A stretch of DNA of 59,516 nt from the NCBI GenBank assembly GCA_964650185.1, contig CAZYRN010000004.1:2553-62068 (forward strand), in the 5' to 3' direction. The notes under the pieces were generated by a model. It did no database searches. It was given only the letters and a program-made list of their open reading frames with translations, and was not told the origin of the DNA. This stretch comes from an uncultured Pseudomonadales bacterium. Lineage in GTDB: Bacteria; Patescibacteriota; Microgenomatia; UBA1400; PJMF01. How positions within the stretch are numbered: the stretch's first letter is position 1; each line of letters begins with the position of its first letter. The translations under genes were made by a program, and so were the position numbers. This document shows, piece after piece, positions 26,447 through 30,900 of this stretch.

Positions 26447-27478
26447 TTAATTTGCTTGACTGTTTTCGGTTAAGCCCAGCACCTTTCTGCCATTACTAGT
26501 GGCAATTTTGGTTAGTGCAGCTAAATCATAAAAGTGCAGACTTTCCAGTAAAAATCTTAACTCCAGCCACATCTCCCCATCAGTAAATGGTTTATAAATA
26601 TCAGCGATGTTGTCGGTGCCAATGGCGACGGTAATTCCGGCCGCAGTCAGCTCCTCCACAGGTGTGACAGAATTATGAACCGGCTGCAGCTCTTCGCGAC
26701 GCCGGTGGTCAATCCACGCCGTTGGGCATGCAATCATCATCACTCCTGCTTCTTTGAGCTGCTGATATAGCTGCTGACGATAAGCTTGCGGATGACTGGC
26801 AATGGAGATGCCATGTATCCCCACCACTTTTCCTGCCATGCCATGCTGGCGAGTTTTGGCAGCAAGCAGTTCAGTCTCTGTTTCTTGAGGACTATTGAGC
26901 TGATCAACATGCACATGCACAAGTTTATTGAGCCGCTGAGCAGTCTCCATAATGATATCTAGGTGCTCCTCTTCCCTACCCAGATCTTTACCCGGCAAGC
27001 CGCCAATAATATCCACAAATTCAGCTCCTCGCTCAAACCACTCCCGCGCCGTCGGCTCGATAACTCCTTTTAAAGTCTGGTTAATAAAAACCAGCTCCAA
27101 ATCTGCCTGATATTTTTCTCTTACTTTGGTGGCAGCTTGGATCGCCTTATCCTCAATCACCTCATCAACATCAATAAAGCTGCCCAGCGCAGTCACTCCC
27201 TGAGCCAACTGCCGCTCGATTGCCATCGCCATCCGATCATAGATTTGAGCAACCGTTGAGGTTCGTTTCATTTCATCTACCAGCGTCCACTTTTGTTGTA
27301 ACTGTGCTTCAGCTAAGTCCAATAAATCTGGAGTAATGGAATATGCCCGATCCAGGTGGGTGTGGGCATTCACCCACCCGCCTCGAGCTTTAATTTCCTC
27401 AAGCAACAAGCCTTTTAGATCCCACTCCGCAAGGCCTGTTAACTTCGCTTCAGTAGCTTTTTTAGCTGCGTTTGCCAT
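26447..27478 (-). CDS. Cytosine-deaminase/AtzC-like metal-dependent amidohydrolase (atypical active site)
   Basis: NAHTHLD (H39/H41), HVHVDQ (H190), IHG (H222), GTDN (D289). Compact, lacking most of the N-terminal beta domain. Confidence 0.85.
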   Translation of the reverse strand: MANAAKKATEAKLTGLAEWDLKGLLLEEIKARGGWVNAHTHLDRAYSITPDLLDLAEAQLQQKWTLVDEMKRTSTVAQIYDRMAMAIERQLAQGVTALGSFIDVDEVIEDKAIQAATKVREKYQADLELVFINQTLKGVIEPTAREWFERGAEFVDIIGGLPGKDLGREEEHLDIIMETAQRLNKLVHVHVDQLNSPQETETELLAAKTRQHGMAGKVVGIHGISIASHPQAYRQQLYQQLKEAGVMMIACPTAWIDHRRREELQPVHNSVTPVEELTAAGITVAIGTDNIADIYKPFTDGEMWLELRFLLESLHFYDLAALTKIATSNGRKVLGLTENSQAN

Positions 27479-29090
27479 TTCTGACGACCAATCTTTTCGC
27501 TAGTTTATGAACATAGTTCTCCGCGATCTCATAGTTATCAATGTACTTAGTGTCATTTTTGACTGACCACTCCCGAATGACTTTTTGATCAGCTTTGGCT
27601 TCGCCAGTTTGTTCACGGTAGGGCTCATGGAAAATGACATCAAATCGGTCTTGTCTCAGCAGATCTTCTAAAGAAGGATTTTTCTTTTTGTACATCTTAT
27701 GAATTAAGATGGATGGCACTTTGTTTTTCTTGAAGAAGCGGTATGTGCCATTGGTAGCATAAAGTTCATATCCTAACTCAATCATCTTTTTAGCTAAAGG
27801 CAAATACTTCTGCTTATTGTCATCTTCACCAATAGTAAACAAGGCAAAGTACTGTTTTTCTTGAGCTGTTTTCATTTGCAGCGTGTAGATTTCCGTAAAG
27901 CCAGCTGAGCAGTTCTGGTTAAAACCCTCACTCTTCATAAAGGTCGCTAACCGCTCTTTGTAAAGTGAGTTGGGACTCTCGACAGCTACTACTTCAGCAC
28001 AGCCTTTATACAGCCGGAGAGTGGCTTTACCAGTCACTTTCTGATTAACTCTGTCTAAGTAAGCATTGAGATTTTGCAGTAGCGGCTCATACCACAGACC
28101 GCCATAGCATAAATAAGCCCACTTATTATCAATTTCAGCCTTGAACTCATTTTCATAACGAGTTGAGACGTATTTTTCTAAGTTAAAGTGTGCTTGAATA
28201 ATAATTTCTGCTGCAGGCGCTTCATATAAACCGCGCACCTTCAACCCGACTAAGCGATCCTCAATGTGATGAGTCACCCCCACGCCGTGTTTGGCGCCAA
28301 TCTTATTCAGCTTCATAATTAGCTCATGCAGCTGCATGTTTTTACCATTTAAAGCCACTGGCAAGCCTTTGACAAAATCAAGCGTCACCAGCTCTGATTT
28401 ATCAGGTGCTTTTTCCGGCAAGGCACACACCTGTAAAATTTTCTCTAAGGGCGGAATCATTTCCGGATTTTCAATTTCACCGCTCTCACCTGTCACGCCC
28501 CACATATTGTCATCATAAGAATAAGGCGAGTCTTTAGTTTGTTTGACAGGAATGTTGTGTTTCTTCACATACTCCAACTGCTCATCCCGACCCATACTCC
28601 ACTCTCTAACTGGCGCAATGATCTTCATTTCCGGTGCTAAAGTCAGTACAGTGCCTTCAATCCGCACTTGGTCATTCCCCTTGCCGGTACAGCCATGAGC
28701 GATGGTATCAGCCTCATACTTGCGGGCCGTATCAACCGCTAATTTTGCCAACAGCGGCCGGCCGATAGGCGTACTAAGGTGGTATTTTCCCTGATAGCTA
28801 GAATTCGCTTTAATGCCCCAGGCAATATAATGGTAAGCGAACTCTTTTTTAGCATCAATTAAAACCGCTTTATAAGCACCTAAATCCAGTGCTTTTTGCT
28901 TAATTTTTTCTAAATCATCCGCTTGCTGACCAATATCAATTGTTAACGCAATTACCTCTGCTTCATACTCATCCGCAATCCATTTCAGCATCATCGAGGT
29001 ATCAAGGCCACCAGAGTAAAGTAGAACCACTCTTTTGACTTCTCCCTTGCGTCCTTCGTAACTCGACACCTTGATGTACTGTTGCATCAT
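27462..29090 (-). CDS. argG: Argininosuccinate synthase fused to a C-terminal MGS-like (CarB allosteric-type) domain
   Basis: YSGGLDTS, AHGCTGKGNDQVR, DDNMWG and DRLVGLKVRGLYEAP in aa 1-410. aa ~413-532 (FTI...K......KKM.ELGYELYATNGT.....HK....P...D......D.I) match the CarB/MGS pattern. SD GAAAGGAG. Confidence 0.93.
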   Translation of the reverse strand: MMQQYIKVSSYEGRKGEVKRVVLLYSGGLDTSMMLKWIADEYEAEVIALTIDIGQQADDLEKIKQKALDLGAYKAVLIDAKKEFAYHYIAWGIKANSSYQGKYHLSTPIGRPLLAKLAVDTARKYEADTIAHGCTGKGNDQVRIEGTVLTLAPEMKIIAPVREWSMGRDEQLEYVKKHNIPVKQTKDSPYSYDDNMWGVTGESGEIENPEMIPPLEKILQVCALPEKAPDKSELVTLDFVKGLPVALNGKNMQLHELIMKLNKIGAKHGVGVTHHIEDRLVGLKVRGLYEAPAAEIIIQAHFNLEKYVSTRYENEFKAEIDNKWAYLCYGGLWYEPLLQNLNAYLDRVNQKVTGKATLRLYKGCAEVVAVESPNSLYKERLATFMKSEGFNQNCSAGFTEIYTLQMKTAQEKQYFALFTIGEDDNKQKYLPLAKKMIELGYELYATNGTYRFFKKNKVPSILIHKMYKKKNPSLEDLLRQDRFDVIFHEPYREQTGEAKADQKVIREWSVKNDTKYIDNYEIAENYVHKLAKRLVVRNGKRS

Positions 29091-29245
29091 GCTCCTTTCA
29101 GTTTAGTTAATATTGAGTGGTGTTTATGCAAAAGATGCCAATGAAAAAGATGCAAAAAAAATCCCGCCTGGGCGGGAGTGAAACCAAACACCGAATGGGG
29201 TGTTTTCAGTTGTTGCTGGAAAGTAGTTTTCTTAGTGGTAGGCAC
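29087..29245 (-). CDS. Putative 52-aa leader peptide reading through the terminator
   Basis: GTG 29245 is open to TGA 29087-29089, which overlaps the argG ATG (ATGA): VPTTKKTTFQQQLKTPHSVFGFTPAQAGFFLHLFHWHLLHKHHSILTKLKGA. Confidence 0.35.
   Translation of the reverse strand: MPTTKKTTFQQQLKTPHSVFGFTPAQAGFFLHLFHWHLLHKHHSILTKLKGA
29154..29177 (-). terminator. Intrinsic terminator (attenuator) inside the argG-pyr operon leader
   Basis: TCCCGC-CCAG-GCGGGA followed by T8, lying between the promoter and the argG start. Confidence 0.85.
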
Positions 29246-29255
29246 TAAGAATGAC

Positions 29256-29285
29256 AGTATAGTCCTAGCGATAATCCAATTGCAA
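29256..29285 (-). promoter_or_regulatory. Sigma70-type promoter of the argG-pyr operon
   Basis: TTGCAA (29280-29285), 18-nt spacer, TATACT (29256-29261). Confidence 0.7.
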
Positions 29286-29959: not shown

Positions 29960-30769
29960 TTATTCTAAGCTGTACTGCTGAGCCATGGCGGGAAGTGGAT
30001 GGTCCCTTCTAAATTGTTCCTGTAACATCTCAAAATTCATGGGATTTCTAAAGTCACCAATTAAATCTTTGTAGGGCCACCAATCTACTCGCTCAAGTCC
30101 AAGTGGGCGCTCCTCACCTAAGATTTGTAGGTTGTTTCTGATGAATCGTAGACACAGATGTGAGTGATCTTTTTGCTTTTGTCGATCATCCTGAGTAAGT
30201 CTTTCACCAGTAAAATAATCTTTGCCATTAAAAAATATAGCTGGATAGTTTCTTCGGTCCTTTTCTTCTACATCAGCAATCACTTGATTAACTGGAGTGT
30301 TAATAGGAACAGCTAAGTATGCTGAAAGTAATAATGTTAAAAATTCTTCCAATTCTTTAATTAAATTCTTTTCATCTAAATTACCTGCTATTTCAAATAG
30401 TCGATCGAGAATATCCGATCTTCTACCCTGACCATTCACACTTCTTCTCACTTGGTCATAATCAATTTCTTCAGTTGGCGAAGGCGTACCCATGGCCACC
30501 CAGCCTCCGTCCGTAAGTTCAATTAGTAAGTTTTCTACTATTAATTGCTCAAGCTCTTGTCGAATCTCTTCCAACTCTCCCAGCAATAAATTGATAGATC
30601 CATCAAGGCTACCTGGAATGATTGATTTCCTTTCGCTTAACCAGATTATGACTGTGTTCCGGAAATTTTCTAAATCCGTAGTTTCAATTAAGAAATCCCG
30701 TCGTTCTCCATAGCCTTGATGAAGTAAAAGATGAGGAAATTTTTCAGAACTTTTGGTCAAAGTAGCCAT
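29960..30769 (-). CDS. Hypothetical protein, possibly MazG-like all-alpha NTP pyrophosphohydrolase
   Basis: LLGELEEI...IELTD (ExxE...ExxD) and VEEKDRRNYP segments. AT-rich; GGAG upstream of ATG 30769. Confidence 0.5.
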   Translation of the reverse strand: MATLTKSSEKFPHLLLHQGYGERRDFLIETTDLENFRNTVIIWLSERKSIIPGSLDGSINLLLGELEEIRQELEQLIVENLLIELTDGGWVAMGTPSPTEEIDYDQVRRSVNGQGRRSDILDRLFEIAGNLDEKNLIKELEEFLTLLLSAYLAVPINTPVNQVIADVEEKDRRNYPAIFFNGKDYFTGERLTQDDRQKQKDHSHLCLRFIRNNLQILGEERPLGLERVDWWPYKDLIGDFRNPMNFEMLQEQFRRDHPLPAMAQQYSLE

Positions 30770-30900
30770 AACAACCACACTCCTATATTAGATAACTAAC
30801 AGAATACCCGTAGCTAATAAATTAGAAAACCACAACAGCTTGTGGTTTAAAAACTATCTAACCACAAAATTATGCACTTTATTCACGCACTTTTCCAGAA

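Follow-up and report, generated by a model that had tools for sequence, protein, structure and literature searches.

A GUG-started upstream reading frame, a conserved 5' hairpin and intrinsic terminators ahead of pyrimidine genes: a possible ribosome-operated attenuator in Saccharibacteria-like Patescibacteria

How could the leader of a pyrimidine operon control that operon without a dedicated regulatory protein? The question is raised by a spacer of 203 nucleotides (nt) on the minus strand of contig CAZYRN010000004.1 (assembly GCA_964650185.1), which lies between the thymidylate kinase gene (tmk) and an ArgG-like gene and is the 5' leader region studied here. The whole stretch of DNA analysed, 59,516 nt in length, is referred to as the window. 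A sigma-70-type promoter would transcribe the leader into an open reading frame (ORF) of 52 codons that starts with GUG, holds an intrinsic terminator (T2) and ends across the start of the ArgG-like gene; the GUG is buried in a hairpin at the 5' end (hairpin 1), and a second hairpin (hairpin 2) precedes T2. An original prediction, made from these letters alone, had listed the same features, and all of them were found again where it had placed them on the minus strand. On the basis of the comparison reported below, we give about even credence to the view that the leader is a ribosome-operated pyrimidine attenuator built on a near-leaderless ORF, acting without a dedicated regulatory protein and controlled by hairpin 1 and by the transcription start site.

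The leader of the window, taken by itself, has no feature beyond chance. The scan found three promoter-like sites where shuffled sequences give 2.9, and one terminator-like site where 1.1 are expected. An open frame of 52 codons has a probability of about 0.05–0.08: the figure of 8 per cent given in the original prediction is reproduced by (61/64)^52 = 0.082, and at this base composition the value is about 5 per cent. Comparison with relatives is the sole source of significance, and the weight to be given to the leader features follows from it.

The leader set comprises 46 homologous leaders from about 29 genera, belonging to two families of one order with Saccharibacteria-like genomes of about 1 Mb. 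The first 27 were taken from the DNA upstream of fused ArgG-like orthologues (65–73% identity); the ArgG-like gene is present in 38 of the 140 genomes of the family. Another 19 leaders, from 16 more genera, were collected with a covariance model of hairpin 1 and its flanks (model R1); two genera recur. Whole leaders cannot be aligned between relatives, yet they have a common layout: a promoter, a GTG, in most cases the motif CTAGTG-loop-CACTAG followed by T8–9, a middle hairpin, a GC-rich terminator with T7–9, and the gene. A -35 box of the form TTGnnn with a spacer of 16–18 nt is kept in most of the 46 leaders, the -10 box of the relatives reads TAnAcT, TAGAAT or TACAAT, and the GUG is invariant, about 8–11 nt 3' of the -10 box. 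The original prediction had proposed that the leaders of homologous operons be compared for the open frame, hairpin 1 and the terminator, and all three proved to be widely kept.

The frame opened by the GUG passes the last terminator, ends within it or ends at most 13 nt before it in all 46 leaders; in the first 27, it passes the terminator in 19 and ends inside it or up to 13 nt upstream in eight. Stop triplets were counted from +20 to 13 nt before the last terminator, with one count per genus. The first 27 leaders (15 genera) have none in the GUG frame against 14 and 16 off frame (P = (2/3)^30 = 5e-6), and the 19 further leaders have none against 18 and 22. Summed over the 46 leaders, the three frames have 0, 32 and 38 stops; the resulting P of about (2/3)^70, roughly 1e-12, gives an order of magnitude only, in view of the relatedness of the lineages and the recurrence of two genera. 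At the level of sequence comparison, these counts establish that the GUG reading frame is under selection. A ribosome within about 10–15 nt of a terminator hairpin represses its folding (PMC4824070), and the 13-nt limit of the ORF stops agrees with this reach.

The stop codon of the ORF overlaps or abuts the start of the first gene (AUGA, UAAUG or UGAUG) in 15 of the 46 leaders, and lies 11–32 nt inside the first gene in about ten further leaders. The encoded peptides are not conserved except for V-P-x-T-x-F-F-L, which is kept because hairpin 1 and the U-tract dictate these codons. Strain variants of the window organism, seen in the DNA runs X10, X14 and X20, comprise five substitutions and one insertion of 3 nt. 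The insertion falls on a codon boundary of the ORF, behind 29143, and gives rise to no stop. The variants are concentrated at 29130–29171, in the ORF just 3' of the terminator, and one of them (29171) is in the terminator loop; hairpin 1, the -10 box and the stem of T2 are identical in these strains.

Hairpin 1 is present, with the GUG buried, in 41 of the 46 leaders (92% of cells paired). Its 5' arm, TAGTG (UAGUG in the RNA), is invariant. The closing pair has changed from C-G to U-A, a compensatory change, in the window and in locus L004, and the remaining changes in the right arm are A>G opposite U and C>U opposite G, by which the pairs are kept as G.U on this RNA strand only. Such substitutions demonstrate, on comparative grounds, that hairpin 1 pairs at the RNA level. 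The loop has 4 to 6 nt (CCUAC, CCAGU, GCAA, CUAG, UCUAA), and 10–15 nt in genus g11. A tail of U7–9 lies 3' of hairpin 1 in 36 of the 46 leaders; hairpin 1 is therefore a promoter-proximal terminator in most relatives. The tail has been lost in the window, in its closest relative L004 and in genera g11 and g23. Genus g17 has lost hairpin 1 and lacks the pyrimidine-rich start window described below, but retains the ORF, two terminators and the GTG, which here stands in ATGGTG.

The U8–9 tract is itself part of the ORF, where it reads UUU-UUU-UUG/A (e.g. L128 and L005, GTG+15..+24). Runs of UUU-UUU are prone to transcriptional slippage, and U-UUU-UUU is a slippery site for ribosomal frameshifting. 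Either event at this tract would shift the frame and end the coupling, possibly adding a further UTP-dependent layer (UTP, uridine triphosphate).

The GC-rich terminator with U7–9 lies inside the ORF or at its end in 45 of the 46 leaders; in the remaining one (L148), no terminator was detected apart from hairpin 1 with its U8 tail. From genus to genus, the stretch between hairpin 1 and T2 shows no sequence conservation, and the middle hairpin of the relatives is unrelated in sequence to hairpin 2 of the window. The upstream gene is divergent in L005, L009, L113 and others, and both terminators therefore belong to the leader and not to the end of a neighbouring operon. At L134 (G113), a second terminator (GTG+84..+112) lies within the first codons of the structural gene (MNPPQGDFFK...), after a UAAUG overlap. 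Here re-initiating ribosomes, besides those of the upstream ORF, would need to cross the second terminator.

The leaders outside the two families differ. Two more distant ArgG-MGS loci, L015 (G049) and L031 (CAYLQG010000034.1), have no CTAGTG motif; they carry a promoter and tandem terminators, and in a short ORF that starts with ATG the stop is placed in or just before the last terminator. From their arrangement, these leaders look like the same principle realized with a different sequence.

The position of the GUG was compared with start-codon spacing in the host genome. In 84 long ORFs the pattern TANNNT stands precisely 6 nt ahead of the first start codon, where the background is about 20 per offset; 74 of these starts are ATG and eight GTG. 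Leaderless mRNAs are therefore common in this genome, and the polymerase normally starts at the seventh base after the -10 box. There is also a minor class at 10 nt, from promoters with a -35 TTG, represented by nine cases against two each at 9 and 11 nt (ATG starts). The original prediction had assigned the GUG the same spacing as the leaderless genes; this holds for the minor class and not for the main class, which lies at 6 nt. With the GUG 10 nt after the -10 box, the mRNA of the window is leaderless or has a leader of 1–4 nt at most.

The four bases before R-GUG are pyrimidines in 39–41 of the 41 hairpin-bearing leaders (pattern YYYY-R-GUG). The base at the canonical start is C or U in every case, purines appearing first with the A and G of A-GUG; in the window, position 7 after the -10 box is accordingly a pyrimidine and the first purine, A10, stands immediately 5' of the GUG. 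This start window is not explained by pairing, because the base after the right arm is the partner of position -4 in only 17 of the 41 leaders; in the other 24 this position is unpaired. The predicted stability of hairpin 1 depends steeply on the first nucleotide. For the window it is -6.8 kcal/mol with a C start (C7), -3.9 with a start at U8, -1.6 with an A start (A10) and -0.5 with a G start (G11); for the consensus, the values listed are -5.2 (C), -1.4 (A) and -0.3 kcal/mol (G). Start-site choice is described as dependent on the concentration of the initiating substrate (PMC5730371). A start-site switch, as supposed in the original prediction, would fit both the conserved pyrimidine window and the modelled loss of stability at A or G starts.

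The link with pyrimidine metabolism comes from the distribution of the motif. Wherever model R1 matches, it does so exactly once in a genome; matches were obtained in 36 of the 140 genomes from the family and in 39 of the 286 from the order, in two families only. The first genes under the motif encode the ArgG-like fusion, CarA, PyrB (aspartate/ornithine-carbamoyltransferase fold), a PyrE-like phosphoribosyltransferase and a xanthine/uracil permease (Xan_ur_permease), or belong to an operon of upp and a nucleoside phosphorylase. The motif also stands ahead of a protein of the DDAH/arginine deiminase (ADI) family that is followed by the ArgG-like gene. In genomes without an ArgG-like gene, the motif heads the carA, pyrB, pyrE-like, permease and upp units, and some first genes without a Pfam match, upstream of recR-hpf-cysS. 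Judged by these genes, the claim that the leader is an independent sign of a pyrimidine function for the ArgG-like gene is borne out. The only other similar site in the genome of the window organism, found by a regular-expression search at C5:35449, codes for the N-terminus of a CobW-type GTPase and was set aside as a chance match.

The loci with Pfam-less first genes, L169 (G025), L173 (G106), L170 (G113), L172 (G013) and L171 (G062), occupy the same syntenic spot (recR-hpf-...-cysS). The proteins concerned are a family of 357–367 amino acids and proteins of 426, 322 and 354 amino acids, the last with the phosphoribosyltransferase (PRT)-like motif VxxxDDxxxTGxT; at L171, upp and a nucleoside phosphorylase come next after the Pfam-less genes. 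Their position under the leader makes these proteins candidate enzymes of pyrimidine salvage or synthesis. A gene of the DDAH/arginine-deiminase family lies immediately upstream of the ArgG-like gene at L139/L008 (G015) and L014 (G041), and in G015 it is under the same leader. This neighbour suggests that the ArgG-MGS pathway receives an input derived from arginine or citrulline.

The coordinates of the elements of the window leader and of the flanking genes are collected in table 1. T2 occupies codons 23–31 of the upstream ORF, and the UGA of the ORF (29089–29087) shares bases with each of the two candidate ATGs at the start of the ArgG-like gene (GCAUGAUG; UGAUG/AUGA). Hairpin 2 has a U-rich 3' flank, GUUUGGUUU, with which it may form a pause element; the only U-rich stretch that precedes T2 in the window is GGUGUUUGGUUU, after hairpin 2. 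Between T2 and the AUG, no promoter reached the scan threshold. Folding of the leader yields three hairpins that are independent of one another (z = -4.3), with a pairing probability of about 1 for T2. The original prediction had seen no antiterminator, and blocking T2 in the folding of the window leader indeed exposed no competing helix. It had also described the tail of the ORF as His-rich: six of the seven histidines are in residues 32–43, and this feature is not conserved in the relatives.

Table 1. Elements of the leader in the window and its flanking genes. Positions are those of the window.
Feature	Position	Strand	Remarks
Thymidylate kinase gene (tmk)	29932-29294	-	upstream neighbour of the leader
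-35 box TTGCAA	29280..29285	-	18-nt spacer to the -10 box
-10 box TATACT	29256..29261	-	sequence scan
Bases between -10 box and GTG, GTCATTCTTA	up to 29246	-	GTG 10 nt after the -10 box
Start-site window t5 t6 C7 U8 U9 A10	29246..29251	-	counted from the -10 box
Hairpin 1, TTCTTAGTG/CCTAC/CACTAAGAA	29229..29251	-	GUG buried in the stem
Upstream ORF, GUG + 51 codons (52 open codons)	29087..29245	-	GTG at 29245-29243
Hairpin 2, AAACACC/CCATTC/GGTGTTT	29186-29205	-	with flank 29181..29205
Intrinsic terminator T2, GC-rich	29154..29177	-	stem 29177-29162, U8 29161-29154
Shine-Dalgarno sequence and candidate AUGs	29085..29097	-	AAGGAG 29097-29092; AUGs 29090-29088 and 29087-29085
ArgG-like first gene	27462..29090	-	argininosuccinate-synthase fold fused to MGS-like domain, 542 amino acids (Pfam)

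The ArgG-like gene is the first of a tightly packed operon that continues with amidohydrolase-pyrD-pyrE-pyrF down to 23911 (Pfam; the PyrE was identified by NCBIfam). The host genome has 912 kb in 35 contigs. A profile search of contigs with the ArgG-like alignment was dominated by ordinary argG and is informative only for the nearest labelled relatives; among the matches listed, the nearest named ones are metagenome-assembled genomes of Candidatus Saccharibacteria and Roizmanbacteria. The organism occurs in bioreactor, digester and sludge metagenomes. In the RNA runs, three compost metatranscriptomes, contigs of depth 2 cover the gene body only and leave the leader uncovered. On the other side of the leader, the nucleotide cluster dUTPase-DHFR-tmk includes an ORF of 272 amino acids (29960–30778, minus strand), placed between the DHFR-like gene and tmk. 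This ORF had no match in the Pfam search at E<=0.001; thymidylate synthase would be expected at its place.

Several established types of leader control were considered and rejected. Rfam, including the PyrR site, gave no match in the window (E<=10) or in the loci of seven relatives (E<=1), in agreement with the original observation that a PyrR site is missing. The sole Rfam signal, anti-hemB, is terminator-like and below threshold, with 24 bits against a cut-off of 49.5. No PyrR gene was found among the six PRT-fold proteins of the genome, which are HGPRT-like, one unknown, phosphoribosyl pyrophosphate synthase, PyrE, Upp and ComF. PyrR-mediated attenuation was rejected on these grounds, since the protein and the binding loop or its Rfam match are both absent. 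A riboswitch or other known cis-regulatory RNA was rejected because Rfam has no match and the genera share no conserved sequence from hairpin 1 to T2. An amino-acid attenuator of the trp, his or phe type was discarded because the peptides are unrelated and have no regulatory codon run, and because an antiterminator is absent. The His-rich tail, found only in the window, was dismissed as lineage-specific noise and with it a histidine sensor.

The elements that are conserved suggest the following mechanism. In the ON state, a ribosome that starts at the GUG would trail the polymerase and cover the 5' arm of T2, so that the terminator could not fold and the operon would be transcribed; the same ribosome could re-initiate on the first gene at the stop/start overlap. 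In the OFF state, the GUG would remain unused, T2 would fold and transcription would end. Hairpin 1 would set the usability of the GUG, because its 5' arm is the extreme 5' end of the RNA. With ample cytidine triphosphate (CTP) and UTP, transcription would start at C7 or U8, the full hairpin would form and bury the GUG, and in most relatives the U8–9 tail would cause immediate termination. When pyrimidine nucleoside triphosphates (NTPs) are scarce, the start would move to A10 or G11; the hairpin would lose two to three pairs and collapse, and an RNA with a leaderless A-GUG or GUG would result. UTP-dependent pausing in the U-rich stretches probably contributes by allowing the ribosome to catch up, as in Escherichia coli pyrBI and pyrE. 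In its full form, the proposal is a protein-free, two-stage sensor of pyrimidine NTPs, in which the initiating nucleotide sets the state of the hairpin/terminator and only the short RNA is translated, its ribosome crossing the second terminator and re-initiating. We give this full form somewhat less than even odds.

A number of points weigh against this proposal. Low UTP normally raises intrinsic termination unless a ribosome or a shift of the start intervenes. The GUG is 9–11 nt from the -10 box and not at the seventh position of the main leaderless class, so that a strictly leaderless RNA needs an unusually distal start, at A10 or G11 in the 10-nt class; in model bacteria, moreover, leaderless initiation is weaker at GUG than at AUG. 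At -5.2 kcal/mol, the consensus hairpin 1 is weak as a terminator. The start switch is dispensable for some members, since g17 does without hairpin 1 and the pyrimidine window. In the window, T2 is the only terminator after the tmk operon, and T2 taken alone therefore has a trivial second explanation, namely that it ends that operon.

One rival is a ribosome-coupled attenuator with a fixed start, of the pure pyrBI/pyrE type. UTP would then be sensed only by pausing at U-tracts, which would give the ribosome time to load on the GUG and remain coupled, and hairpin 1 would pause the polymerase or terminate in part, in competition with ribosome binding. The U-tract after hairpin 1 in 36 of 46 leaders and the second tract of U7–9 after T2 are in line with this, as is the ORF of g17, kept despite the lost hairpin 1 and the purines in its start window; pyrBI and pyrE provide the precedent, and repression of nearby terminators by ribosomes is documented. 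A fixed start, however, leaves unexplained the pyrimidines at -4 and -5 (39–41 of 41), which are mostly unpaired, and the exact coincidence of the canonical start with the first base of the 5' arm of hairpin 1. The hairpin also folds far faster than a ribosome binds, so that, with a fixed start that takes in the whole arm, the GUG would nearly always be buried; in the window and in L004, hairpin 1 is not followed by a U-tract. We consider a fixed start rather unlikely. An absence of any sensor is a good deal harder to accept and appears quite improbable: the terminators would insulate the operon, and the ORF would deliver ribosomes by translational coupling for constitutive expression. Stop/start overlaps (15 of 46), the frequency of leaderless initiation in the host genome and the role of T2 as sole terminator after tmk could all be accommodated in this way. 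Against it, terminators inside an ORF downstream of its own promoter would be wasteful unless read-through is conditional, both are kept where the upstream gene is divergent, the motif is limited to pyrimidine units with one copy per genome, and simple coupling has no need of a hairpin that buries the start codon.

Two further explanations invoke a trans-acting factor. Hairpin 1 could be the site of a pyrimidine-sensing RNA-binding protein or of a small RNA, a functional analogue of PyrR, whose binding would stabilize or melt the hairpin, with the ORF and terminators as the read-out. In the invariant UAGUG arm and the loop, which in many cases reads CCAGU or CCNNC, there is more conservation than pairing requires, and a single motif copy per genome is compatible with such a site. 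The start codon and the start window already account for the invariant bases, however, and the loop sequence varies; the PRT-fold proteins include no PyrR homologue, the PyrR site of Rfam is unmatched, and in these genomes of about 0.9 Mb with few regulators no candidate gene is linked to the motif. We regard such a factor acting on hairpin 1 as improbable. Still less credible is a DNA operator of a dimeric repressor, which we hold to be very improbable. The inverted repeat CTAGTG-N5-CACTAG is indeed a conserved palindrome across the transcription start, but the A>G and C>U changes of its right arm pair only as G.U in RNA and break the DNA symmetry. The U8–9 tract that follows in 36 of 46 leaders, the variable loop (10–15 nt in g11), the conserved frame and T2 would also be left without explanation.

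If the protein-free sensor is real, Saccharibacteria-like Patescibacteria would have in this leader their first defined cis-regulatory element and regulon marker, and it would mean that ultra-small, regulator-poor bacteria can control a costly pathway by RNA polymerase, the ribosome and NTP pools only. The single-copy motif may serve as a practical marker of a regulon: it labels the ArgG-MGS/amidohydrolase operon as pyrimidine-related, which supports a separate proposal of a new route to uridine monophosphate, and it flags several proteins of unknown function as candidate enzymes of pyrimidine salvage or synthesis. With about 100–200 nt, the leader could also be a compact model for leaderless initiation in competition with co-transcriptional RNA folding.

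A literature search found no such leaders in Patescibacteria. Their components have counterparts elsewhere. In PyrR attenuation of the Gram-positive pyr operons, as proposed here, termination occurs in the leader of a pyr operon and responds to pyrimidines; PyrR systems need the protein, its binding loop and an antiterminator/anti-antiterminator, none of which was found in our leaders. Leaderless short ORFs encoding poly-Cys peptides in mycobacteria are the first cistron of their mRNAs and act as cis-regulatory sensors (bioRxiv 10.1101/834739). The leaderless leader peptides of mycobacteria and other actinobacteria resemble the present case in having a leaderless short first ORF and a leader family that marks a metabolic regulon. 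The mycobacterial ORFs sense an amino acid, with stalling at a run of codons, and their target is a structure in which the next ribosome-binding site is hidden, whereas here there is no conserved codon run, only the Phe codons forced by the U-tract, the targets are intrinsic terminators and the signal is likely to be the NTP supply.

The closest parallels are in the enterobacteria. The pyrBI (pyrL) and rph-pyrE leaders of E. coli and Salmonella depend on UTP-sensitive coupling of transcription and leader translation. As in pyrBI, the leader ORF can run through the terminator, or, as in pyrE, end just before it, and both geometries occur among the 46 leaders. The genes controlled are again pyrimidine genes, antiterminator and regulatory protein are absent, and a ribosome would block the terminator. 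In most relatives U-rich stretches lie upstream of the terminator and may be sites of pausing. Unlike pyrBI and pyrE, the present ORF has a near-leaderless GUG start with no Shine-Dalgarno sequence and with the start codon inside a 5' hairpin; most members have tandem terminators, of which the first is only about 30 nt away from the start; overlap of the ORF stop with the start of the first gene is frequent; and the host belongs to the Patescibacteria, with no sequence similarity to the E. coli leaders.

The start-site component recalls the CTP/GTP-sensitive start-site switching of pyrC and pyrD in E. coli and Salmonella; in E. coli, a CTP-initiated RNA with two extra residues forms a translation-blocking 5' hairpin and a G-initiated RNA does not (PMC6524683). 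Here too, a pyrimidine is at the canonical start with a purine 2–3 nt downstream, and only the longer RNA would form the 5' hairpin that hides the start, with a predicted loss of 5 kcal/mol from C7 to A10. The differences from pyrC and pyrD are that the hairpin hides a leaderless GUG and not a Shine-Dalgarno site; that it governs an upstream ORF and not the enzyme gene, its output passing to a downstream attenuator; and that, with U8–9 after the hairpin in most relatives, the structure would also terminate transcription, the switching itself being presumed. The best reading of the leader is therefore that of known principles, those of pyrBI/pyrE and of pyrC/pyrD, which appear to have been combined and rebuilt on a leaderless upstream ORF.

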